Below are positions 36-20,889 of a stretch of 21,444 nt of DNA, one piece after another. The position numbers and the translations under genes were made by a program. Source of the stretch: a virus. The stretch lies in UHGV virus genome UHGV-1982450; one strand, given 5' to 3'. Within the stretch, counting starts at the first letter, position 1. The number at the start of each line of letters is the position of its first letter. The notes beneath the pieces are model-generated. The model had not been told where the DNA came from and did no database searches. It saw only the letters and a program-made list of their open reading frames with translations.

Positions 36-218
36 CTAACTTTGCAACAGTGCCCTTTTATCTCTCATAACCACCAGCGTCGATGCCGCCGGAGATTGGT
101 ATTTGAATATTCTGGCCTGCGGTGCTGGCTTTGCCTCAGAGACAGGAATAGGACGAGATTGACATGCAGTGATAAGTAACGCGGAGGCAGCAACCAGAGG
201 AAGTAATACGTGTTTCAT
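36..218 (-). CDS. small putative lipoprotein (about 60 aa)
   Basis: Lies within ORF 36..254. The internal Met at 218 gives MKHVLLPLVAASALLITAC: a basic N-terminus, a hydrophobic core and the lipobox I-T-A-C. The upstream ATG (252..254) sits inside hairpin 253..272, so the 218 start is preferred. No family recognised. Confidence 0.45.
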   Translation of the reverse strand: MKHVLLPLVAASALLITACQSRPIPVSEAKPAPQARIFKYQSPAASTLVVMRDKRALLQS

Positions 219-252
219 TGTACCGAACAAAATCCTTATCTTTACGAAAATC

Positions 253-272
253 ATGGCGCCTCAAGGCGCCAT
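253..272 (-). terminator. candidate intrinsic terminator after the 92-aa ORF
   Basis: Perfect 8-bp stem ATGGCGCC / GGCGCCAT with loop TCAA. Read on the minus strand it is followed by GATTTTCG. It lies 6 nt downstream of the stop of ORF 278..556. Confidence 0.4.
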
Positions 273-3260: not shown

Positions 3261-3527
3261 ATGACGTTGACCGACAAACAAAAAGACATCATCAAAACCA
3301 TCAATTTAGGCCATGAGCGTGGGCATCTGCTCGATCTGGACGAGCTGCTTGAAGTGCTGCCGTACAAAACGACCAAACAGAGTATGCAGTTCTCTATCCG
3401 CGCACTGGTGAAAAAGGGGCTGGTGGAGAAAGGAATGTGCCGCCAGCGCGGTGATTCCGGCTACCACCGTCGCACGCTGGGACTGACCACGTTAGGTCGT
3501 GCCAGAGCCAAATTACTGGTGATGTAA
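3261..3527 (+). CDS. small winged-helix (MarR/wHTH-like) DNA-binding protein
   Basis: 88 aa. QSMQFSIRALVKKGLVEKG followed by a basic wing (RQRGDSGYHRRTLGLT) is typical of a wHTH recognition helix plus wing. Confidence 0.5.
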   Translation: MTLTDKQKDIIKTINLGHERGHLLDLDELLEVLPYKTTKQSMQFSIRALVKKGLVEKGMCRQRGDSGYHRRTLGLTTLGRARAKLLVM

Positions 3528-3548: not shown

Positions 3549-3611
3549 AGAGCCTGCTTCCGTATATATAAATACTAAGTGACTTATTAAATATATACGG
3601 AAGCAGGCTCT
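3549..3611. repeat. 63-bp palindromic hairpin element, copy 1
   Basis: Perfect 21-bp arms AGAGCCTGCTTCCGTATATAT (3549..3569) and ATATATACGGAAGCAGGCTCT (3591..3611). A 26-nt stretch, ACTTATTAAATATATACGGAAGCAGG (3582..3607), is identical to 11545..11570. Confidence 0.9.
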
Positions 3612-3644: not shown

Positions 3645-3682
3645 AAACAAATTGGTTAGGCACTGAATTAAACAAGTTGTTT
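3645..3682. promoter_or_regulatory. tandem operator-like palindromes AAACAA-N-TTGTTT upstream of terS
   Basis: 3645..3657 is AAACAAATTGGTT (one mismatch) and 3670..3682 is AAACAAGTTGTTT (perfect). Both are followed by TAGG. The same motif occurs at 9514..9526 and 12443..12455. Confidence 0.55.
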
Positions 3683-3722
3683 AGGAGCGCAAGGATGCGC
3701 TCTGAGTGTTTTAGAGGGATCT

Positions 3723-4366: not shown

Positions 4367-5623
4367 ATGGCCATCCCGTCGTCTCTGAGTCTCGTACAGC
4401 TGCATTCTGGGCAGATGCAAGTCTTCCAGTCGCCACATCGTTTCAAAGTGGTGTGTGCGGGTCGACGCTGGGGTAAATCCCGGTTGTCGATCTCCACCAT
4501 CATCCGCGCGGCAGCCAAAGAGAAGAAGCAACGTGTCTGGTATGTCGCACCGACTTACCAGATGGCTCGCCAGATCTTGTGGGATGACCTGCAGGAAGTT
4601 CTGCCGCGCAAATGGGTTCGTAAGAAAAACGACACCACGATGACCATCGTGCTGAAGAACGGCTCTGAAATCGCGCTGAAAGGTGCGGATAAGCCCGATA
4701 CGCTTCGTGGTGTGGCACTGCACTTTGTGGTGCTCGATGAATTTCAGGATATGAAGCCTGACACCTGGTACAAGGTACTGCGTCCGACACTGTCCTCCAC
4801 CCGTGGCGGTGCGCTGATCATCGGTACGCCAAAAGGCTTCTCCGAGTTCCACAAGCTGTGGACTATCGGTCAGAACAAAGATTTGCAACGCAAGGGGCAG
4901 TGGAAGAGCTGGCAGTTCGTTACGGCCGATTCTCCGTTCGTACCGAGCGCGGAAATCGAAGCAGCGAAGAACGATATGGACCCTAAATCGTTCGCACAGG
5001 AATACCTGGCCAGCTTCGAAAACATGTCCGGACGCGTTTACTACCCGTTCGACCGCAATGTGCATGTGAAGCCACTCCAGTTCAATCCGAAACTGCCGAT
5101 CTGGGTTGGTCAGGACTTCAACATCGACCCTATGTCATCGGTCATCCTGCAACCGCAGCCAAATGGTGAACTGTGGGCTGTGGACGAATTGGTGTTGTTC
5201 TCTTCTAACACGGCTGAAGTGTGTGACGAGCTGGAGCGTCGATACTGGCGCTGGAAATCTCAGGTCACTATCTTTCCTGACCCGGCAGGTGCGTATCGCC
5301 AGCACGCACGCGGCGAATCTGACGTCGACATCTTCAAAGAGAAAGGTTTCCTTCGAGTCGATTATCCGAAGAAGCACCCGCCGATCGCAGACCGTGTTAA
5401 CGCAGTGAACCGCATGTTGATGAGTGCCTCGGGCGAAACCCGGTTGTACATCGATCCGAAGTGCAAACACCTCATCGACTCGCTGGAGAAGGTGATCTAC
5501 AAGCCAGGCTCACGCGATATGGATAAGACTGGCGGCATCGAACACAGTGCGGATGCGTTGGGTTATCCGGTTCATCGTAGGTATCCGGTGAAAAATCGTG
5601 TTATTCTTGGTGGATCTAGATAG
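4367..5623 (+). CDS. terL: terminase large subunit
   Basis: Walker A is VCAGRRWGKS and Walker B is HFVVLDEF. Size (418 aa) and position between TerS-like and portal-like genes fit TerL. Confidence 0.85.
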   Translation: MAIPSSLSLVQLHSGQMQVFQSPHRFKVVCAGRRWGKSRLSISTIIRAAAKEKKQRVWYVAPTYQMARQILWDDLQEVLPRKWVRKKNDTTMTIVLKNGSEIALKGADKPDTLRGVALHFVVLDEFQDMKPDTWYKVLRPTLSSTRGGALIIGTPKGFSEFHKLWTIGQNKDLQRKGQWKSWQFVTADSPFVPSAEIEAAKNDMDPKSFAQEYLASFENMSGRVYYPFDRNVHVKPLQFNPKLPIWVGQDFNIDPMSSVILQPQPNGELWAVDELVLFSSNTAEVCDELERRYWRWKSQVTIFPDPAGAYRQHARGESDVDIFKEKGFLRVDYPKKHPPIADRVNAVNRMLMSASGETRLYIDPKCKHLIDSLEKVIYKPGSRDMDKTGGIEHSADALGYPVHRRYPVKNRVILGGSR

Positions 5624-5638
5624 GTAAGTACTTACCTA
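5621..5638. promoter_or_regulatory. perfect 18-bp palindrome TAGGTAAGTACTTACCTA at the terL/portal junction
   Basis: It starts at the terL stop codon TAG and ends 18 nt before the portal ATG. Related copies lie at 11657..11674 (2 mismatches) and 2165..2182 (4 mismatches). Confidence 0.6.
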
Positions 5639-5656: not shown

Positions 5657-7231
5657 ATGGAATTGACTGACAAGCAAATCAAAGACCTTGTGGCACGACG
5701 CCACCCTGAATATGAGAAGAAAAAAGAACATTGGGACTTCCTCGCCAGCACCTACGCTGGCGGGCGTGCCTGGTTCAACGACAATATCTTCCGTTACTTC
5801 AAAGAGGGCGATCAGGAGTTCAAAGAGCGCCTGGAACGCGCTTATCGCTTCAACCATACGCGCGAAGTGGTAAACCTCATCAACAAATACCTCTTCAAAG
5901 AGGTCATTCACCGCAACACTGATGAAGCACCGGAGCAGATCCGCAATTTCTGGAAGCGAGCCACGCGCCAGAACGCCTCCATCGATGCGTTTATGGCGGC
6001 TATCGATCTGCAATCATCCATTTATGGCCGTATCTGGGTTGTCGTGGATAGCACGATGAACGTCGATGTTGAGTCTGTTGCAGACGAGAAGAAAAATGAT
6101 GCGCGTGCCTACGCTTACTGGATTTCGCCGCAGCAGCTGCTTGATGTTGCCTGGGATGAAGACGGCAATATGTTGTGGGCGCTGATTGTTGAAATCGCGC
6201 GCGACGACGAAGATCCGTTCACTTCAACCGGGCAGGAATACCAGCGTTACCGTCTGTGGACGCAAAACGAGTGGTATCTGTTCCGTGAAGAAGTGAAGAA
6301 GGGTTCCGGAAATAGCGGTCGCCGTCAGGCCAAAGTCGTTCTGGAGGATAGCGGCCAGCATAATCTGGGCGTGGTGCCGGTGTTCCCGGTGGATTGCATT
6401 GGTGAAAGCGAGTCTCCGTATTTTAGCCCGTCGTTGATTGACGATATTGCCTATCTTGATCGCGCCGTGGCCAACTACCTGTCGAACCTTGACGCGATTA
6501 TTCAGGATCAGACATTCAGCCAGTTAGCGATTCCGGTTCAGTCCCTGCTGCCGGGCGATGAAAACCACACCAAAGTGCTCGAAATGGGGACAAAACGTGT
6601 CTTCACCTTCGATTCTGAGAGCGGTAATCAGCCATTCTATCTGTCTCCAGACCCGAAACAGGCTCAGATGATCATCACCACGATTAAGACGGTGATTAAT
6701 GAGATCTACCATTCCGTTGGTGTGGCTGGTGAGCGAACCAAGCAGGATAACGCGCAGGGTATCGACAACTCTTCGGGGGCAGCGAAGATGTACGACTTCC
6801 AACGTATTAACAGTCTGTTGGTGACAAAAGCAGAGCGCCTCGAAAGGGCAGAACGCCAAATGATGGAGTTGGCTGCGAAATGGATGGGCATCGAATTGGA
6901 TGAAGACCACTCTCTGATCGCTTACCCGGAGAGTTTCGATATTCGTGGTCTGACTGACGAATTTGCCGTCGCTGAGAAATTGTCGCTGTTACAGGCGCCT
7001 GATTCTGTACGTCGTCATCAGATGGAAATGCTCATAGAAAAGATCTTCCCGAATATTTCCGAAGCGATGCAAAAGGAATTTAAAAAAGATCTCTTGAAAT
7101 TTCCTCTAAAAAATGCTCCTGGCGCCCTTGAAAATAAGTCAGTACTTACTTATGATTGCGATACAGTCCAAGAAAGCGGACAAGATCAACCCCGAGGGAA
7201 TGGGGACTCATCTACTCAAGAGACCGAGTGA
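5657..7231 (+). CDS. putative portal protein
   Basis: 524 aa, immediately downstream of terL, with an RBS GGAAAGGAAA. The N-terminal pattern (ERLERAYRFNHTREVVNLINKYLF) resembles what I recall of DUF4055-type portals. Not verified. Confidence 0.6.
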   Translation: MELTDKQIKDLVARRHPEYEKKKEHWDFLASTYAGGRAWFNDNIFRYFKEGDQEFKERLERAYRFNHTREVVNLINKYLFKEVIHRNTDEAPEQIRNFWKRATRQNASIDAFMAAIDLQSSIYGRIWVVVDSTMNVDVESVADEKKNDARAYAYWISPQQLLDVAWDEDGNMLWALIVEIARDDEDPFTSTGQEYQRYRLWTQNEWYLFREEVKKGSGNSGRRQAKVVLEDSGQHNLGVVPVFPVDCIGESESPYFSPSLIDDIAYLDRAVANYLSNLDAIIQDQTFSQLAIPVQSLLPGDENHTKVLEMGTKRVFTFDSESGNQPFYLSPDPKQAQMIITTIKTVINEIYHSVGVAGERTKQDNAQGIDNSSGAAKMYDFQRINSLLVTKAERLERAERQMMELAAKWMGIELDEDHSLIAYPESFDIRGLTDEFAVAEKLSLLQAPDSVRRHQMEMLIEKIFPNISEAMQKEFKKDLLKFPLKNAPGALENKSVLTYDCDTVQESGQDQPRGNGDSSTQETE

Positions 7232-9242: not shown

Positions 9243-9513
9243 GTGTACCCCCTGATGGCCGGTGATGTAGGAAGGCCATCATTGCTCTCTATTTAAACTG
9301 AGTTTTCGACTCAAAGGTTATTTAACTGGGCTATAGCCCATTGCGTATGTGTCATCAAATTGTGTACGGCAATTTACCGTACTCGTAATATAGAGGTGAT
9401 TGTCACTTTTTTCAACAGACAAATGAAAACAGTTACTAGCAATAGGCAATAACAACCTACTAAATAACCTTTACACCGCAGCCGTAGGCATTTAGGCTAT
9501 ATCGCATATAAGA

Positions 9514-9526
9514 AAACAAGTTGTTT
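9514..9526. promoter_or_regulatory. operator-like palindrome AAACAAGTTGTTT over a putative parA promoter
   Basis: Perfect palindrome 36 nt upstream of the parA ATG. A candidate sigma70 promoter, TAGGCA (9485..9490) - N16 - TATAAG (9507..9512), ends 2 nt before it. Confidence 0.5.
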
Positions 9527-9561: not shown

Positions 9562-10227
9562 ATGACCAAGATCATTGTGGTTGGCGGCACAAAAGGCGGC
9601 CCAGGCAAATCTACCGTTGCCCAGCAAATTGCGGTATGTCTCAAAGTTAAAAAGAAAAAGAAGGTTCACGTCACCGATATCGATATCCAGCGCACCACGA
9701 CCAGCTGGTGTGAAGACCGTCGCCAGAACGAAGATCTTGAACTGATCCCGTTCGCTTATGTGCAGGACGACATCGTCAAACATCTTAAATCGCTTCAGGG
9801 GCGAACTGATTATGTAGTGGTAGATGCTGGTGGCTTTGACTCCGAAATTCAGCGTCTGGCGATGCTTATGGCTGATGTAATCATCATCCCGCTGCGCCCT
9901 AAACGTCGTGATTTGAAATCTCTGCGTGATATCGACCCGATTATCGACAACGTTCGCAATGTGAACGAGAAAGTTAAGATCCGCGCGGTAATAAACCAGT
10001 GTCCGTCATTGCCTTCCCAGGTATCACGTATTCTGGCCGCGAAGGAAATTGTCGAAACTTTCGGCATCGAGGCTGCGCCGGTTAACCTGTACAACCGTAA
10101 CGTTTATGACGATGCGGAAGAGGCAGGTCGTTCTATCTTTGAAATGACTGGCGCTGAACGCGATAAGAAGGCAGAAGCCGAGTTCGAAGAGTTTGTAGAT
10201 TACATCTTGAGTCTGGAGGAAGAATAA
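9562..10227 (+). CDS. parA: ParA-family partition ATPase (small, type Ib-like)
   Basis: Deviant Walker A GGTKGGPGKST at the N-terminus. The protein is 221 aa and is followed by a 1-nt overlapping small RHH gene. Confidence 0.9.
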   Translation: MTKIIVVGGTKGGPGKSTVAQQIAVCLKVKKKKKVHVTDIDIQRTTTSWCEDRRQNEDLELIPFAYVQDDIVKHLKSLQGRTDYVVVDAGGFDSEIQRLAMLMADVIIIPLRPKRRDLKSLRDIDPIIDNVRNVNEKVKIRAVINQCPSLPSQVSRILAAKEIVETFGIEAAPVNLYNRNVYDDAEEAGRSIFEMTGAERDKKAEAEFEEFVDYILSLEEE

Positions 10228-10586
10228 TGTCCATGAGAATGGGAGACCTTGCAAAGCGCAATGAGCCTAAAGAACCGGCCAAAAGCAGCACTCCACTGCG
10301 CCAGCCAGTCAGACCGCAGGGGCGTCCGACTCGTGGCAAAGAGAAAATTAAAAGTCGCACAATGTCACTGGAAGACGAATACTTCGAACTGCTGGAGATG
10401 ATGAAGTTCATCCCTCGTTTCGAGAAGTTCACCCGTTCTGACGTGATTCGCGCTGCTATTTTCCATCTGGCAGAGAAGTCACCGCAGGAAATCGAGGACA
10501 TCGTGAAACTTAACGAGGCGATCACAGCTGCCGATGTCACGATGCGTACCGATGAAATCAAACGAGAGTTGATGAAGAAAGGTTAA
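10227..10586 (+). CDS. putative centromere-binding RHH protein (ParG-like partner of ParA)
   Basis: ATG overlaps the parA stop (TAATG). The N-terminal tail is basic and disordered. RTMSLEDEYFELLEMM...TRSDVIRAAIFHLAE fits a strand-helix-helix RHH fold. Confidence 0.55.
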   Translation: MSMRMGDLAKRNEPKEPAKSSTPLRQPVRPQGRPTRGKEKIKSRTMSLEDEYFELLEMMKFIPRFEKFTRSDVIRAAIFHLAEKSPQEIEDIVKLNEAITAADVTMRTDEIKRELMKKG

Positions 10587-11517: not shown

Positions 11518-11570
11518 CCTGTTTCTGTATATAAATAATAAGTAACTTATTAAATATATACGGAAGCAGG
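11518..11570. repeat. 53-bp near-palindromic hairpin element, copy 2
   Basis: Arms are 11518..11543 and 11545..11570 (22 of 26 positions pair, 2 more as G:T). The right arm is identical to 3582..3607. It is immediately followed by the perfect palindrome GTCTTTTAAAAGAC (11570..11583). Confidence 0.9.
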
Positions 11571-11656: not shown

Positions 11657-11674
11657 TAAGTAAGTACATACCTA
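11657..11674. promoter_or_regulatory. TAAGTAAGTACATACCTA, related to the 5621..5638 palindrome
   Basis: 16 of 18 positions are identical to TAGGTAAGTACTTACCTA. It lies 14 nt upstream of the GTG start at 11689. Confidence 0.5.
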
Positions 11675-11688
11675 TTAAAGGGAATCAT

Positions 11689-12414
11689 GTGAGCCAGATC
11701 TTCTTCAACACTATCGACAATGACCAGTACGATTTCATGACAGAGTGGAACACCGCAGTCATGGATAAGTGGGTAGCGGAGAACATTGGCCTGTCACGTT
11801 GCAAGGACGAGGCGGAACTGTTCGAAACCAAATGGTTTGACTATCGCGATATGCACCCGCTCATGGCCACATGCCTTTTCACTGAGGCATACAAGCGCCA
11901 GTACTCATACATCATGCTGTCGCATGGTCGTGAACACTATGAGACGGCTCCATTCACAACCGGTCTGAAGCGTGTGCCATATCAGGAGTTGTCGACTGCC
12001 AATAAAACGTCTCTATGGAAAGCACGCCAGTTTGCTGACCGCTATTGCTGCTCATACGACTACTTTATCTCCACCGTTCTTTCCGCAGCTGCACGACGGC
12101 TGTGGGACAAATTACCGCGCCCCCAGCATCTCTGGCAGCCCGAGTTGATCGATATATTCGAAGAGAAGTTAGCCAAACGCGCTGTAACCCGTCTGGATGA
12201 CTCTCTGGTGAGTTTTAAGCATCTTGGAGACATGCAGCGTGACCCGATTCAGGAACGCTATTTTGAGTGGATTCTGGAGCGTCTGCGTGGCATTACCCGA
12301 GATAAACGCATCCGTATCATCTTCTCCGCTGTCTGGTTGATGGAAATCGTGCCTGAGCGTGTGATTTACGCGCACTTCCCGGAAGAACTGGAAGAAGCAC
12401 GGCGATTCTGTTGA
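11689..12414 (+). CDS. hypothetical protein (241 aa), first gene of the replication block
   Basis: GTG start with AAAGGGAA upstream. Same strand as, and directly upstream of, the DnaB-like helicase gene. No motif recognised, so any loader or initiator role is only positional speculation. Confidence 0.45.
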   Translation: MSQIFFNTIDNDQYDFMTEWNTAVMDKWVAENIGLSRCKDEAELFETKWFDYRDMHPLMATCLFTEAYKRQYSYIMLSHGREHYETAPFTTGLKRVPYQELSTANKTSLWKARQFADRYCCSYDYFISTVLSAAARRLWDKLPRPQHLWQPELIDIFEEKLAKRAVTRLDDSLVSFKHLGDMQRDPIQERYFEWILERLRGITRDKRIRIIFSAVWLMEIVPERVIYAHFPEELEEARRFC

Positions 12415-12442
12415 TCCCCTATCTGGCTTTTTTAGTATTAGA

Positions 12443-12455
12443 AAACAAATTGTTT
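12443..12455. promoter_or_regulatory. operator-like palindrome AAACAAATTGTTT upstream of the DnaB-like gene
   Basis: Perfect palindrome 19 nt before the ATG at 12475. A candidate promoter, TTGATC (12411..12416) - N16 - TAGTAT (12433..12438), lies just upstream. Confidence 0.5.
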
Positions 12456-13848: not shown

Positions 13849-13875
13849 GTCTCCAGAAGAGAACAAATTTCTCTT

Positions 13876-15229: not shown

Positions 15230-16216
15230 TTGTCGTTCTTTGGGGGAGAAGTGAACATTGTAGATGCTCTTGTTCTCAAGAAGTTAATGAGCGTTGGTGA
15301 TGAAACTGTTCTGTCAATCTTAAAGTTTTCAGCGTACAGCGGAGTGTCAACACTCGAAGAACTGGTAGTTAACTCCTCCAATCTGAAAATCTCAAATGGT
15401 AAATCTCGAGCAACTCTCGAAAGTTTCTTCGACGCTGCGAACTTCCAGGCTCTCAGGGACGAAGTAAAAACAGAGATTGATTCGTTCAAAAATAAAGGAG
15501 TTGAGATTGTTATCTTCGGTTCGAAAAACTATCCAATTTCGTTATATGATCTCCCGAAACCTCCACCCTTTCTTTACTGTAAAGGCAATCTAAATCTCTT
15601 AGAGAATAGGCTTTCATTAGCTGTTGTAGGAACTCGTGAAAACACCCCCAAGGGTGAAACCCTAACGATTAAAACTATTCAAAAGTTTGCGACTTATGGC
15701 TTCACGATAGTCAGTGGACTTGCACTGGGTATCGATACAATTGCTCATCGCGCGGCATTAGATGCCAAAACACCAACGATTTCTGTTCTTGTCGATGTGG
15801 AGTCTATTTCTCCCGCAAGTAATCGGGAACTCGCTAAGGAAATATTGGACGAGGGCGGACTTCTAGTTGCAGAGAATGCACCAGGAACCAAAGCAATACC
15901 TGCGTTCTTTGCTAAGCGAGACAGGATACAAGCAGGTTTATCTACTGCCGTCTTTGCTATTGAAACTTCGATAGATGGTGGGACGATGCACGCAGTCAAA
16001 TCTGCTATCTCTATGATGCGTCCTGTCTTCGTTCCTGACGTACATAAAGCTAAGTATCCAGATCTTACTATCAAGGCAATTTCAGGAACTCAACAGCTAG
16101 TTAACGAAGGGAGGGCGATACCATACACGAGCGAATCTTATGAAGATATTCGTCTTCAATTAGAAGATATCGCGAGTTCATTTGGGTCGTTGAAAGCAAA
16201 AGGTGGCCTGCTGTGA
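15230..16216 (+). CDS. DprA/Smf-family (Rossmann/SLOG-like) DNA-processing protein homologue
   Basis: The canonical DprA core runs YPISLYDLPKPPPFLYCKGN...LAVVGTRENTPKG...IVSGLALGIDTIAHRAAL...FFAKRDRIQAGLS...ETSIDGGTMHAV. The N-terminal part resembles the DprA SAM/HhH-like region. The track start is TTG (15230); GTG at 15251, after GGGGGAG, is an alternative. Confidence 0.85.
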   Translation: MSFFGGEVNIVDALVLKKLMSVGDETVLSILKFSAYSGVSTLEELVVNSSNLKISNGKSRATLESFFDAANFQALRDEVKTEIDSFKNKGVEIVIFGSKNYPISLYDLPKPPPFLYCKGNLNLLENRLSLAVVGTRENTPKGETLTIKTIQKFATYGFTIVSGLALGIDTIAHRAALDAKTPTISVLVDVESISPASNRELAKEILDEGGLLVAENAPGTKAIPAFFAKRDRIQAGLSTAVFAIETSIDGGTMHAVKSAISMMRPVFVPDVHKAKYPDLTIKAISGTQQLVNEGRAIPYTSESYEDIRLQLEDIASSFGSLKAKGGLL

Positions 16217-19200
16217 TAAAGGTCATCGTCCTCGATCTTGATGACACGCTTATTGATACATCAAGCCTCGAACCACTTCGGTTAGCTGGCCGATGGAGAG
16301 ACATACCCAGGTACTTTAATGGTTGTGTCATCAATCAGGACGTTGTCGGCCTTGTTACAACGGCTCGGTCGGTTGGAATCAAGGTTGCTATCTTCTCGAA
16401 TGCGCCTTCGAACTACGTTCAGGGGCTACTCAAACACTTCAGTATCACTGTTGATTATGTAGTAGCCTACCATGATGTAACGCAGCATAAGCCGAGCCCT
16501 GAGGGCGTTACTCGTATTCTCGAGTACTTCGGTGTTAGCGCCGACGAGTCAATTTATTTAGGAGATAGTAACCTAGATCGAGACGCTGCTTCCAATGCAG
16601 GAGTTGAGTTTTTCTCAGTAGATTGGGGTTCTGCCTCGGAGATCGATTCGTCACATAAGGGAATAAGCGGTCTCTCCGAGCTTATTGGAAAAAACTCGAC
16701 GCGGAGCTCCGCAAGAACTGGACGTTCTGAGTTAATACAATCTGGGAATAAACTTCATCTGGGATTCTATTTAGATGGTATCAAACAGGAAGTTTGGTCT
16801 TTCAAGGATAACAAGAATACTTCTGTTCGCCGCTGGGTTAACAAGACTGTTGAGCTAGCTTCTTCATTCCCAGCCATAGATATAGTTGTTCGAGCGTTAG
16901 GTCACGCTGAGCTTAGGGCTGAAGATGGCGATAAAGCATTAGATACCTTGGGCAAATCGCTGGCTGTTGCTTTAGGGGCTTCTTACCAACCTAAGATATT
17001 AGAGAAAGATCACGTATTAGATAAATCGACTAATTGCACTGCAGCACAAAGACTCCACCAGGTCAGAGGTGCCTATAAAGCCGATTTTGATTCAATAGAA
17101 GCTAATTCAAATCCGACATTTCTGATCATTGACGACGTATTAACTTCGGGGGCTACAACTGATGAGATAACACGCTGTCTATCTCAAGCTTTTCCGAATT
17201 CAAGTATTTACATTTTTACGTTGGTTAAAACTCTCTATAGATTGGAGCTATGCACTGACAGCCAAGAACAACAACACAATAACCAACTGTTTTCAGATTT
17301 GTACAACCCAATCATCGACTCGCTGGCGGACGAAAGTGAACTATCTAGACATGTCAGGTCGAAGTCTAGTAGCAGGCTTGTAAGCAAGAAGTTTTCTGCT
17401 AACTACGCGAGAACCAACCATAACTTCATTTTCCACAATCTTCTCCAGTATTCTATCTCGTCTGAAGCGGCGTCTGGACAGCTATTTGCAGCAATTCAAG
17501 TTCTTAAGAATATGCTTCAGAGAGGGAAGCCAACAATAGCCTCGCGGAAGCTGAGGAAGGCATTTGGCATTGAACTGGATCAGAACGTTCTTAATACACC
17601 AGCTCAGGCTCTTGTGTCAGATAAGCCGGTTTTTTGGAATAGATTGATTCGAGGCCACAAACAGTCAGGAAACTACCCAGCGAAAAGGTTTTTTGATGAG
17701 CTGATACCGAAGTATTTCGGTAAGTACATTTTTGTAAAACAACTAATGCTCCCTGAAGTCCAGATTTACGATATGACTCAGGTCTACGTTGAACAATTCC
17801 AGAACCGACAGGTAGATTTTTACATTCCTCAAGTTGGTTTAATTATTGAGATAGACGGTCAGCAGCACCAAAATTCTCAGCATTTAGATGAAATGAGGGA
17901 TGCGTTTACCGAAAGCCTGGGACTGAAGACTGTTCGATTCACTGTTCAAGAACTGGCATCTGAGAACCAGTCATTTATCAGTAAGATAAATTCGATTATT
18001 TCTCACATTCAGATCGTTGATGGTCTAGAGCGAAATGGTGTCCTAACGCCTCCTAATGGTATTTCTTTATTGAATTACCAAGAGGCTTACGAAAATGGAG
18101 TCGATGTTACTGACTCGCGATTGAGGCTGACCTCGGCGTTGCGTTTCCAGATACTGTTATTAGAGCTTCTTGAACGCGGTCAGATCAGACTAGGGGAGTT
18201 GAAAAAACTATTCATAGTCAATCGTGATGGAACTGATTTTGCTGAAGCGGCACTGGACGACCTGAACGATTTGTTATCGAATATCTTTCGTCTCATCGGC
18301 ATTGAAGAAAAGCGAATTGAGGTTGCGCTGATCGAATCAGATGAGCTTCCGAGCGAACGGTCTGGTGAAAATATATTCATCGACTTCAGCTTACTGGAGC
18401 GTTATGACGATTCCTTTCAAGTTAACCAAGACGTCATATATTCACGTACGGATTACTTCGATTTCTATCGAAACTTCGAAGATTCTGATGCTGTTTCAAT
18501 AGAAACCAGTCAATTGATTGACTATGACTTTTTTGAGCTTTCATGTAGTAACCCCATTACCTACAAGCTAGATCTTAGCCCAGGCAGCGAGCAGAGAGAG
18601 TCGCTGAGATACTTCCTCAGCAACCTGTTTCTACCATACCTAGAGGATGTAGATTTCAGGGAAGGGCAGGTTGGTATCATAGGATCTGCACTTTCGAAAA
18701 ACGGCACAATAGGATTGCTGCCTACAGGTTCGGGTAAGTCGATTTGTTACCAGCTGTCTGCGGTCCTGCAACCAGCCGTTAGCTTTGTCGTGTGCCCGAT
18801 AAAAAGTTTGATGTATGACCAGAAAGCAGATTTGGATAGCATCGGCTTCACTCGAAGCAATTTTATTACAAGTGATTTGAAGGCAGGAGAGAAGGCCAAA
18901 GTTCAGAGAGATTTCGGACGTGGTAAGTACTTCTTCGTTTTTATATCGCCTGAGCGATTCCAAACCCATGCGTTTAGAAAAGAGATGTTGGCTATCGGAC
19001 TAGATCTCTCATTTGCCTACGCGGTGATCGATGAAGCTCACTGTTTGTCTGAGTGGGGACATGATTTCAGGACTTCTTATCTGAACCTGGCAAATACAAT
19101 CGAACGGTTTGCTCCCAGTGCGAGTTATATAGGTCTAACGGCAACAGCATCAGTTAACGTCCTAAAGGATATTCAAACAGAGTTTGATATCCCAGATGAT

Positions 19201-20889
19201 TTTGTCCGTACCCCCATGGACTTCACTCGCGAGGAACTATCATTCCACGTCATTGACGATAAAGGCCGTAAAGGTGATGCAGTCGTCGAGCTTGTTTCTG
19301 AAATGGAGGGTAAATGGAATTCAGATGGGGAAGACGGCAATAAGGCGGGGATCATATTCACTTCTACCGTCAACGGAGCTAAGGGGTGTTATAGCTTAGC
19401 GGGCCGAATATCAACACTCTTGAAGATGGATGTTAGATATTTTTCGGGGTCGGCTCCGAAAATGGGTGGATTGCAGGGAGAGGCTTTCGATAGATATAAG
19501 CGCCAAGTTCAAGACGATTTTAAAGAAAATAAATACCGCCTACTTACTGCCACTAAGGCATTCGGAATGGGCGTGAATAAGGGAAATATTGCCTATACGG
19601 TTCACTTCGGAATACCTGGGTCGATGGAGGCCTTGTATCAGGAAGCTGGCAGGGCAGGGCGAGATAAAAAACTATTCAAGGAAGTACCCGCAGATTGCTA
19701 TGTGCTTCTCACAAAAGAGCCCAATTCAGCTATTCTCGACAAGATTTGGGACGCTAGCACGAACGTCAAAGATCTGAAGGAGTACGTGAAGTCATTGAGT
19801 CGCGATAGCGACCTGAACACAAATCTATTCCTGATGACAAACGGCTTGGGCACAATCAATGATGAGTTCAAGTTGATGGCAAATGTATACGAATTTTTTA
19901 AGTACAATCAGGAACACAACACGGTGACCATTACTGCCAGGCAGTTTGGTACGGAAAAGTTTAAATTGGAAAAGGCTATCTACCGCCTTTCTCAATTAGG
20001 TATTGTCTCTGACTGGGTAATCGAAGACTTTTTTAATGGAACGCTCTCTGTCGAGTTCCAGTGCCTATCGGAAGAAGGCCTGGAAAAGAAAATTGAGCAT
20101 ACCGTCAGAAAGTATGATCCTGAGTTTAAGCTCGCTGATGTGTTCAGTAGTGATAACCAGTACTACAAAATTCTCTGCGACAAGCTGAGAAAAGGGTCTA
20201 TCGATAAATCGCAATTTATCTTTCTTGTTCTTTTACTTTGGTCCTATGACCATTTTGTCTACAACCGCCGCCAGTCACAGAAGAACGTTTATGAACACTG
20301 TAGTTTATTTGCTGAAGGCAGGATGGATGGTAAAGAATTTAAGGAGAAGTTAGAGGGTTATTTCAGACACGACAAGTCGAGCCAACTTTTGCTCAATATG
20401 GCTGAGAATTCTGTGTCGGTGAAGTTATGGCCATCAGTTTTTTTTGAAACTGATGAAGAAGAGGGCTCGGAACATTTAGTAAGCAGCGAGAAGATGACGA
20501 TCCTACGAGGTCAGATTTCTCGATTCCTAGAGTCATACAAAGATAATGCATTCTTGAACTACTTGAGTGGTGTGCTGCGACTAGCTTCCGATGAGTTTGA
20601 TGATGCAGATGGAGAGCGAAGAATGGCATCGTCATTTGATCGGTTGATCAGTGATAATAGGGATGAAGCACTAGAGCTGGTCCGAAAAACTATGCAGTTA
20701 AAACCAATATTTTCTGAAAATGCGCGAAGTCGCTTTGCTCGTTTGGTCCATGAGAAATTTGAAGATTTGGATTTTCTTGGGGAAGTAAATGAAGAGCTAG
20801 GAGATCCGTTCTCCTATCACACTTTGTTAGCTCCACTGGCAATTAGACTTGAAAAACTTACCAGCCTATACAAGGGGATTAATTGGTGA
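16213..20889 (+). CDS. 1558-aa multidomain protein: HAD phosphatase + type I PRTase (ComF-like) + DUF559/Vsr-like PD-(D/E)xK nuclease + RecQ-family helicase core + unknown C-terminal region
   Basis: HAD motifs: DLDDT (D8/D10, nt 16234..16248), FSNAP, K93, GDSNLDRDAASNAG (nt 16561..). PRPP loop: FLIIDDVLTSGATT (nt 17119..17160). Nuclease motif: DFYIPQVGLIIEIDGQQH...VRFTVQEL (nt 17815..17955). RecQ motifs: FREGQ (18655), PTGSGKSICYQ (18721), VIDEAHCLSEWGHDFR (19027..), LTATAS, ATKAFGMGVNK, YQEAGRAGRD (..19665). The GTG start overlaps the DprA-like stop (GTGA, 16213..16216), with AAGGTGG 6 nt upstream. Confidence 0.9.
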   Translation: MIKVIVLDLDDTLIDTSSLEPLRLAGRWRDIPRYFNGCVINQDVVGLVTTARSVGIKVAIFSNAPSNYVQGLLKHFSITVDYVVAYHDVTQHKPSPEGVTRILEYFGVSADESIYLGDSNLDRDAASNAGVEFFSVDWGSASEIDSSHKGISGLSELIGKNSTRSSARTGRSELIQSGNKLHLGFYLDGIKQEVWSFKDNKNTSVRRWVNKTVELASSFPAIDIVVRALGHAELRAEDGDKALDTLGKSLAVALGASYQPKILEKDHVLDKSTNCTAAQRLHQVRGAYKADFDSIEANSNPTFLIIDDVLTSGATTDEITRCLSQAFPNSSIYIFTLVKTLYRLELCTDSQEQQHNNQLFSDLYNPIIDSLADESELSRHVRSKSSSRLVSKKFSANYARTNHNFIFHNLLQYSISSEAASGQLFAAIQVLKNMLQRGKPTIASRKLRKAFGIELDQNVLNTPAQALVSDKPVFWNRLIRGHKQSGNYPAKRFFDELIPKYFGKYIFVKQLMLPEVQIYDMTQVYVEQFQNRQVDFYIPQVGLIIEIDGQQHQNSQHLDEMRDAFTESLGLKTVRFTVQELASENQSFISKINSIISHIQIVDGLERNGVLTPPNGISLLNYQEAYENGVDVTDSRLRLTSALRFQILLLELLERGQIRLGELKKLFIVNRDGTDFAEAALDDLNDLLSNIFRLIGIEEKRIEVALIESDELPSERSGENIFIDFSLLERYDDSFQVNQDVIYSRTDYFDFYRNFEDSDAVSIETSQLIDYDFFELSCSNPITYKLDLSPGSEQRESLRYFLSNLFLPYLEDVDFREGQVGIIGSALSKNGTIGLLPTGSGKSICYQLSAVLQPAVSFVVCPIKSLMYDQKADLDSIGFTRSNFITSDLKAGEKAKVQRDFGRGKYFFVFISPERFQTHAFRKEMLAIGLDLSFAYAVIDEAHCLSEWGHDFRTSYLNLANTIERFAPSASYIGLTATASVNVLKDIQTEFDIPDDFVRTPMDFTREELSFHVIDDKGRKGDAVVELVSEMEGKWNSDGEDGNKAGIIFTSTVNGAKGCYSLAGRISTLLKMDVRYFSGSAPKMGGLQGEAFDRYKRQVQDDFKENKYRLLTATKAFGMGVNKGNIAYTVHFGIPGSMEALYQEAGRAGRDKKLFKEVPADCYVLLTKEPNSAILDKIWDASTNVKDLKEYVKSLSRDSDLNTNLFLMTNGLGTINDEFKLMANVYEFFKYNQEHNTVTITARQFGTEKFKLEKAIYRLSQLGIVSDWVIEDFFNGTLSVEFQCLSEEGLEKKIEHTVRKYDPEFKLADVFSSDNQYYKILCDKLRKGSIDKSQFIFLVLLLWSYDHFVYNRRQSQKNVYEHCSLFAEGRMDGKEFKEKLEGYFRHDKSSQLLLNMAENSVSVKLWPSVFFETDEEEGSEHLVSSEKMTILRGQISRFLESYKDNAFLNYLSGVLRLASDEFDDADGERRMASSFDRLISDNRDEALELVRKTMQLKPIFSENARSRFARLVHEKFEDLDFLGEVNEELGDPFSYHTLLAPLAIRLEKLTSLYKGINW

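Follow-up and report, generated by a model that had tools for sequence, protein, structure and literature searches.

A conserved 13-base palindrome in about 20 promoters of SSU5-type phage-plasmids, probably a dispersed operator network

In phage-plasmids of the SSU5/pHCM2/pMT1 type, the palindrome AAACAAnTTGTTT is a strongly conserved DNA site found in about 20 promoters. Four copies stand in a 21,444-nt stretch of the virus genome UHGV-1982450 (hereafter the window). Most likely a single regulator encoded by the element binds there and silences phage early, replication, partition and packaging genes in the plasmid state. The best explanation, which we consider probable, is a promoter-embedded DNA operator that is present at about 20 promoters, is bound by one protein of the element and represses in the plasmid state. 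No description of the motif strings or of SSU5-family operators was found in the searchable literature, and the feature would be a previously undescribed dispersed operator network of the plasmid/prophage kind.

Results

The window as a remnant of a phage-plasmid

E. coli plasmids such as p1585m1_B (NZ_CP086388.1) matched the window at 100% identity; matches at 81-92% identity came from parts of Salmonella phage SSU5, of Escherichia phage Cyrano and of Klebsiella phage-plasmids. The carrier plasmid p1585m1_B was a mosaic of IncF replicons, IS26/IS1, resistance genes and SSU5-type phage-plasmid blocks. The left block of the window contained a helicase gene, a truncated ParB_N gene, terS, terL and the portal gene; after the portal gene the order jumped to a KacAT toxin-antitoxin pair, parA, a dnaB-like gene, the primase gene and DprA. 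Morphogenesis genes were missing, indicating that the window is a degraded remnant of an SSU5-like phage-plasmid. Because IS26 deleted a portion of the left arm and morphogenesis genes have been lost, the palindrome sites found here are inherited regulatory parts.

The IS26 end occupied positions 1-61, and a 72-aa ORF at 36-254 (minus strand) was a truncated homologue of SSU5_122 with 85% identity over 54 residues. The insertion took out a FljA-like gene and everything to the left of it. Near the other end, positions 16213-20889 formed a single ORF of 1558 aa, which was absent from SSU5 at that position. In p1585m1_B this ORF was split by IS1 into a 'HAD-IA family hydrolase' and a 'helicase-related protein', and in other plasmids it was annotated as a RecQ-family helicase.

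Four intergenic copies and their surroundings

When at most one mismatch was allowed (pattern AAACAANTTGTTT), the 13-base palindrome matched exactly four times in the 21.4-kb window, against an expectation of 0.09 from 100 dinucleotide-preserving shuffles (0/100 reached four). The coordinates and sequences given for these copies in the original prediction were exact (Table 1). All four lay between ORFs. The site ended 40 nt before the start codon at terS copy 2, 35 nt before it at parA and 19 nt before it at the dnaB-like gene; the predicted spacing of 19 to 41 nt thus described the three perfect copies only, because the imperfect terS copy 1 sits 65 nt away. The extended form of the palindrome was AGAAAACAAnTTGTTT / AAACAAnTTGTTTTCT, and its 17-mer version was GAAAACAAnTTGTTTTC. 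Flanks said to be shared by the copies were so on the 5' side, where AGA was general among palindrome sites. However, the 3' flank AGGCAC was restricted to terS copy 1 and, as AAGCAC, to dnaB.

The sole other near-match, AACCAAATGGTTT at 11826-11838, had two mismatches and lay within the ORF at 11689-12414, and it was not counted as a copy. Shortening the core to 11 nt with two mismatches gave mostly noise (19 matches vs 13 expected). A looser relative, AGAGAACAAATTTCTCT, had been proposed in front of the primase gene (13857-13873). It was not conserved among 19 distinct orthologous primase-upstream sequences, showing that it is not a copy of the palindrome; the only conserved elements there were an upstream terminator hairpin and CTTTTGCCAAAACCACAAAAG.

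Table 1. Positions of the palindrome copies, candidate regulators and associated elements in the window
Feature	Position	Strand	Sequence	Remarks
88-aa winged helix-turn-helix protein	3261-3527	+		Gene immediately precedes the two terS copies
Palindrome copy 1 before terS	3645-3657		AAACAAATTGGTT	1 mismatch; 5' AGA flank
Palindrome copy 2 before terS	3670-3682		AAACAAGTTGTTT	Perfect; 25 bp centre-to-centre from copy 1
GC hairpin	3684-3703	+	GGAGCGCA-AGGA-TGCGCTCT then GAGTGTTTTA	Between the terS operators and the terS ribosome-binding site
Candidate parA promoter	9470-9498	+		TTTACA (9470-9475), 17-nt spacer, TAGGCT (9493-9498); read by eye
Palindrome copy before parA	9514-9526		AAACAAGTTGTTT	Perfect
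119-aa ORF	10227-10586	+		Overlaps the parA stop; partner of a small type Ib-like ParA
Palindrome copy before dnaB-like gene	12443-12455		AAACAAATTGTTT	Perfect; -10-like TAGTAT (12433-12438) ahead

The GC hairpin predicted behind the terS copies was present and stable (-12.6 kcal/mol, z -3.2), and it was flagged as terminator-like by its GC-rich stem and U run. Relatives carried a compensatory GAGCACA/TGTGCTC variant as well as wobble variants. The hairpin may serve as an attenuator/terminator or as a leader structure. At two places, 3549-3611 before the terS sites and 11518-11570 before the ORF that begins at 11689, the window had a long AT-rich hairpin, CCTGCTTCCGTATATATAAATA...TTATTAAATATATACGGAAGCAGG. 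It was conserved with covariation of its arms in relatives, and the deposited SSU5 and Cyrano genomes begin inside its right arm. It may function as a terminator, in packaging or as a further binding site.

Distribution and conservation in relatives

Scanning the carrier plasmid and relatives with the motif recovered sites across the family. Intact SSU5 (103 kb) contained 20 sites at no more than one mismatch and 21 with a PWM score of at least 12, and Cyrano contained 18. p1585m1_B had ten sites, all of them in its SSU5-derived parts; its IncF/resistance parts had none. Nine were present in 40 kb of a K. michiganensis relative (TerS 63% identical) and four in 40 kb of Y. pestis pMT1. By contrast, an Acinetobacter baumannii relative (TerS 33%) had three imperfect matches without the shared flanks, which is background. 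Besides this Acinetobacter branch, an Aeromonas branch also comprises lineages without the motif. A TerS search matched 955 plasmid records.

All 21 SSU5 sites were intergenic though 88.4% of that genome is coding, and random placement would give this with a probability of about 0.116^21. The predicted absence from coding sequence therefore extended from the window (4/4 between ORFs) to SSU5 (0/21 in coding DNA), and a similar frequency in coding regions was not observed. The SSU5 sites preceded terS, parA, the dnaB-like, cobT-like and nrdB genes, anti-repressor and methyltransferase genes, and, in the 80-95 kb interval, some ten cassettes of small genes.

Conservation at orthologous sites was followed in IMG/VR loci, using 40 distinct upstream sequences for terS, 53 for parA and 34 for dnaB. 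At terS copy 2 the entropy was 0.000 in the half-sites, 0.88 at the centre and 0.56 in the flanks. The corresponding values at dnaB were 0.054, 1.26 and 0.49, and two of its 34 sequences had a degenerate copy. The parA half-sites were invariant. Overall, the twelve half-site positions had an entropy of 0-0.05, compared with about 0.9-1.26 for the centre and 0.2-0.56 for the 30 bases of flank on each side; all four bases occurred at the centre. The copies are thus conserved in relatives, with half-sites that are invariant at orthologous sites while their surroundings drift.

The imperfect terS copy 1 was the identical variant in all relatives but one clade, in which an exact 25-nt deletion merged copies 1 and 2 into one perfect copy. 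Between the two terS copies, 8-10 nt varied by clade and both copies were retained. At parA, the DNA upstream of the conserved promoter block was unrelated cargo that differed among relatives. TTTTCAG heptad arrays (up to about 7 copies) lay about 250-300 nt upstream of parA in six loci (L089, L111, L114-L117), and GGTTTCAGTTTCTAG repeats lay near parA in L162/L163. By their sequence the TTTTCAG arrays resemble centromere-like iterons. As a general element next to parA such repeats were rejected, the TTTTCAG arrays being present in only 6/165 loci and the window having no tandem arrays.

Position relative to promoters

Aligning 45 sites from three genomes, with the start site assumed to lie 7 nt after the -10 hexamer, revealed two arrangements. 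Where the palindrome had the AGA flank (n=28), a -10-like hexamer began 19-20 nt ahead of it in 14/28, and 9/14 of these also carried an upstream TG (TGnGATAAT, an extended -10). Where it had the TTGTTTTC flank (n=13), the -10-like hexamer began 19 nt past the palindrome in 8/13. Under the assumed start, the operator centres fell at about +14 and about -38, the downstream class spanning about +8 to +20. Paired sites 51 bp apart flanked promoters in SSU5 (88319/88370 and 93662/93713) and in Cyrano (93114/93165), and the longer, better half-site GAAAACAA always pointed towards the promoter core. One promoter of SSU5 with both sites is that of gp104. The distance to the start codon was variable (12-150 nt); in many genes the motif ended 1-3 nt before the Shine-Dalgarno sequence. 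About 55 nt were similar around many sites, comprising a terminator hairpin, CCTTTT, nine unspecified bases (N9), GATAAT, AACACCAACAAGA and the palindrome.

The spacing locked to the -10 hexamer indicates that the sites are tied to promoters as DNA, and not to ribosome-binding sites or as RNA. As RNA, the palindrome folded with only -0.5 to -2.2 kcal/mol, no better than shuffles, unlike the stable GC-rich stem with a U run of an intrinsic terminator. Read as a sequence pattern, a perfect dyad with a free centre base is a signature of duplex DNA. The sites thereby show the general features of a dyad operator: conserved half-sites with a free centre, intergenic over-representation and a fixed position relative to promoters whose starts are predicted.

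A simple consensus scan called no canonical -35/-10 pair at the three window promoters, and their -10 assignments were made by eye. At parA the palindrome began 15 nt after the -10-like TAGGCT, and the conserved block opened at CCTTTACA in 53/53 sequences. TATAAG (9507-9512) had been suggested as the parA -10. At dnaB a conserved TAnnAT hexamer ended 4 nt before the palindrome, with TAGTAT/TATTAG at 12433-12441. The hexamers that the original prediction placed directly ahead of the palindrome do exist and the arrangement fits dnaB best; elsewhere the gap was mostly 13-14 nt, or the site lay near -38.

A second small dyad, TATATCnCATATA, was located at 9499-9513 directly before the parA palindrome; its arms were conserved and its centre was variable in relatives, and it may be a parA-specific operator. 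In Cyrano, the annotated starts of CYRAN_105 (95805-96155) and CYRAN_110 (97903-98253) are placed on or ahead of the palindrome. Both genes have a start codon past the palindrome that is served by a ribosome-binding site, indicating that the deposited starts are probably too far upstream.

Expression in the Cyrano lysogen

Published RNA-seq of an LF82 lysogen of Cyrano (PMC9928086, S1 Table), with a prophage background of 9.8, was used to follow the genes behind the motif. At or near background were 12/15 genes directly behind it, namely terS (7.1), the cobT-like gene (7.8), CYRAN_58 (5.7), 85 (7.0), 87 (7.1), 93 (6.3), 101 (7.5), 108 (5.7), 110 (6.7), 105 (12.8), 106 (12.2) and nrdB (12.9). 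The three exceptions were dnaB (21), CYRAN_111 (25.5) and parA (49.8). CYRAN_28 and CYRAN_29 reached 50 and 89, and the parA operon was expressed about 5-fold over background despite its palindrome. ParB_N genes of the SSU5 family were at background in the same data (PMC9928086). Motif-led promoters with a near-consensus extended -10 were silent, which implies repression. However, the lysogen data discriminate weakly and are supportive only, because most prophage genes are silent anyway.

By far the strongest expression of any Cyrano gene in the lysogen was that of CYRAN_43 (40268-40822, minus strand; 184 aa, phrog_28788), at 7084 vs 9.8 (PMC9928086). It adjoins a cassette of an integrase and an Xre-type regulator that is missing from SSU5.

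Candidate regulators

The original prediction identified no regulator in this window. The window does encode candidates, the 119-aa partner of ParA and the 88-aa winged-helix protein (Table 1). The 119-aa protein has a basic disordered N-terminus followed by a possible strand, IKSRTMS, and helices; by eye it resembles a ribbon-helix-helix adaptor with a basic tail. The pattern GRPTRGK..IKSRTMS.EDE...FTRSDVIRAAI was invariant down to 48% identity in relatives with the same palindrome, and no homologue was found in the palindrome-less Acinetobacter relative. The operon to which it belongs has a palindrome copy within the conserved parA promoter and is transcribed in the lysogen, the gene itself at 89 (PMC9928086). 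An hhalign comparison of the family with ParG and omega sequences gave no similarity. We tentatively put this protein forward as the likeliest binder of AAACAAnTTGTTT.

The 88-aa protein was predicted by AF2 with a pLDDT of 85 and a pTM of 0.74, and Foldseek gave TM scores of 0.66-0.76 to AF1382, MarR, MepR and PadR-type regulators. It was 76% identical in the K. michiganensis relative and 34% identical in the Acinetobacter relative. Its Cyrano homologue, CYRAN_123, was at background in the lysogen (7.8; PMC9928086). This protein more likely serves a second palindrome, AGTAAGnnCTTACT.

Three other proteins were considered as binders and rejected. SSU5_121 (L005:46897-47343, minus strand) and CYRAN_114 (L009:780-1301, minus strand) are strong homologues of FljA (PF03614, E 1e-80), which represses phase-1 flagellin, and they also show a faint similarity of the Sm/Hfq-like kind. 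The gene is expressed in the Cyrano lysogen and missing from the window's plasmid, and its product could act on host flagellin or on phage mRNAs. As binder of the palindrome it was set aside: the family is RNA-binding, identity of the protein falls to 37% in a relative with an unaltered motif, and nothing similar to the motif occurs in the E. coli fliC leader. CYRAN_45, an Xre-type 'putative repressor', is expressed in the lysogen but absent from SSU5 with its 21 sites; it is also present in the motif-less Acinetobacter relative, and its own divergent promoter region lacks the palindrome. The 92-aa ORF at 278-556 appeared ribbon-helix-helix-like by eye and is lysogen-expressed, but its putative DNA-reading strand differs between SSU5 and Cyrano, both of which have the motif.

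A gene annotated as a sigma-70 family sigma factor was noted in A. baumannii pCFSAN093707 (L288:30380-31045, record 82337-83002). It adjoins a MoxR/CobS-like gene, ahead of a DNA polymerase gene.

A second dispersed palindrome

A second palindrome, with a consensus of about ATAAGTAAGTACTTACTTAT and the core AGTAAGnnCTTACT, occurred in the window at 2167-2180, 5623-5636, 7137-7150 and 11659-11672 (4 sites vs 0.03 expected). SSU5 had about 15 such sites, and the A. baumannii relative had 26 in the form ATATT-AGTAAGCGCTTACT-TATAAT. The core abuts a -10-like hexamer, e.g., TTGAAA-ATAAGTCAGTACTTACT-TATGAT. It marks internal gaps of the late operon, the divergent helicase/ParB region and other genes, and it co-occurs with the 88-aa winged-helix protein. 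From its sequence context it looks like a family-wide promoter or operator type.

Discussion

Proposed mechanism

In the mechanism that we propose, AAACAAnTTGTTT would act as a double-stranded DNA operator whose binder is a symmetric oligomer of one SSU5-family protein. The operator would be built into about 20 promoters of the host RNA polymerase (sigma-70, often with an extended -10), either just past the start site at about +14 or over the -35 region at about -38. Some promoters would use both positions, 51 bp apart, and terS would use two copies 25 bp apart. An occupied operator would block binding or escape of RNA polymerase. In the plasmid-prophage state, the early cassettes, the dnaB-like, nrdB and cobT-like genes and others would be kept at background, as would terS, the entry point of the packaging/late operon. 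The parA operon would run at a moderate level under autoregulation.

A shared operator for one dimeric regulator, as first suggested, is backed by the intergenic restriction, the conservation footprint, the -10 geometry and the silence in the lysogen. We infer that binding represses rather than activates and that the binder is encoded by the element; the suggested plasmid-state repressor is thus probably right. The regulon is wider than the three operons first named. It includes terS, parA and dnaB, but it spans about 20 promoters that mostly serve early, DNA-metabolism and small-gene cassettes. Control of late genes holds for the terS promoter, which is the only late promoter with the motif, whereas internal late gaps carry AGTAAGnnCTTACT.

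Alternative explanations

The palindrome might instead be the site of a phage-encoded activator that marks a temporal class of promoters, the genes being silent since the activator is unmade. We regard this as unlikely. The 88-aa winged-helix protein would be one candidate, as its gene immediately precedes the terS sites and stays at the background level (7.8) in the lysogen; however, it also occurs in the Acinetobacter relative, which lacks this palindrome and has 26 copies of the other one. Thirteen sites near -38 have a class II-like position, but 28/45 lie past the -10 at about +8 to +20, where activators normally do not act. Although a canonical -35 was not found at the window promoters, many promoters of the family carry TGnGATAAT and would need no activator. 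A quite different reading places the motif in leader RNA by the ribosome-binding site, where a translational repressor such as the FljA-like protein (PF03614) would bind. SSU5_121 and CYRAN_114 are strong members of the FljA family with faint Sm-like similarity, the gene is expressed in the lysogen and missing from the motif-less Acinetobacter relative, and a post-transcriptional action of FljA on fliC mRNA has been reported (cited in PMC2652032). Against this, the K. michiganensis relative has the same motif but an FljA-like protein with only 37% identity, and nothing similar to the motif stands in the E. coli fliC leader. The end of the motif does lie 1-3 nt from the Shine-Dalgarno sequence in many genes, but the spacing is locked to the -10 while the start codon is 12-150 nt away, and 13 sites are upstream of the -10, outside the transcript of the promoter they flank. 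The perfect dyad with a free centre points to duplex DNA, and the RNA hairpin would be unstable. Action as RNA is therefore very improbable.

We give hardly any credence to a reading without a dedicated regulator, in which the palindromes are left over from promoter cassettes that were duplicated or mobile, or are sites of a host architectural protein. The similarity of about 55 nt around many sites could partly reflect cassette duplication rather than selection on each base, and in the variable part of SSU5 (80-98 kb) sites border small gene cassettes. However, the half-sites are invariant while flanks and centre drift, down to a TerS identity of 63%, and the motif is absent from the non-phage parts of p1585m1_B. 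As for a host protein, the core resembles the IHF consensus with two mismatches, but no palindrome site matches the IHF core WATCAANNNNTTR, whose only two matches in the window both lie away from the palindromes. Neither cassette duplication nor IHF binding needs dyad symmetry. A repressor operator thus remains the reading that we prefer.

Significance

Escherichia, Klebsiella, Salmonella (pHCM2) and Yersinia pestis (pMT1) commonly harbour phage-plasmids of the SSU5 type, a medically widespread family with some members that bear resistance genes. The silencing of lytic genes in their plasmid state is essentially undescribed, and a 13-bp operator at about 20 promoters gives a concrete handle on it: the operator predicts a regulon, offers sites that can be mutated and leaves a few small proteins as possible regulators. 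The control sites persist in decayed remnants on resistance plasmids, the window among them, and some of these have lost nearby genes. The retained sites could matter for expression of the remaining partition, helicase and terminase genes.

A more specific proposal is that the ParA partner (10227-10586) reads AAACAAnTTGTTT as a partition adaptor that doubles as a global repressor, the roughly 20 sites being both operators and a scattered centromere. We consider this rather doubtful. If true, segregation, copy number and lysis-lysogeny would be coupled through one protein-DNA interaction in pHCM2, pMT1 and the Klebsiella and E. coli resistance-carrying phage-plasmids. The link to copy number would arise from titration of a limiting adaptor by 20 sites per copy.

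Comparison with known systems

T4-type phages reportedly contain promoter-early stem-loop (PeSL) cassettes, as described by Arbiol et al. in 2010. The present sites are similar in that modules of a terminator and an early promoter are repeated around small ORF cassettes in a plastic genome region, and such modules may explain the similarity that extends beyond the operator. Unlike here, PeSLs are not defined by a conserved dyad operator, and the palindrome also serves the core operons of terS, parA and dnaB.

In IncP plasmid RK2, the ParB-family helix-turn-helix protein KorB binds OB, an odd 13-bp palindrome (TTTAGCSGCTAAA) with about a dozen or more dispersed copies. Both systems have a 13-bp palindrome with a free or degenerate centre, dispersed over a replicon of about 60-100 kb, with a link to ParA-type partition, varied positions at promoters and co-regulation of replication, partition and other operons (including transfer in RK2). 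The sequences are unrelated, and OB had no match here at up to two mismatches. The favoured candidate here is a small ParA partner, in a phage-plasmid with a lytic programme.

The operators of P1 C1 are asymmetric 17-mers (consensus ATTGCTCTAATAAATTT), and the late genes of P1 need a separate activator. P1 is likewise a plasmid prophage with many scattered operators that control separate operons without a single immunity region. It differs in the asymmetry of its operators, and ATTGCTCTAATAAATTT had no match in the window at up to three mismatches. Omega of the inc18 plasmid pSM19035 and ParG of TP228 are DNA-binding partners of a small ParA that repress their own operon, and repression by omega extends to copy-control and toxin-antitoxin promoters. 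The targets of omega are arrays of 7-bp heptads and those of ParG are tetramer boxes, whereas the sites here are single 13-bp palindromes and the regulon would include phage lytic genes. From these likenesses, our best reading is that the palindrome would form a repressor operator network like those of P1 C1, RK2 KorB and inc18 omega.
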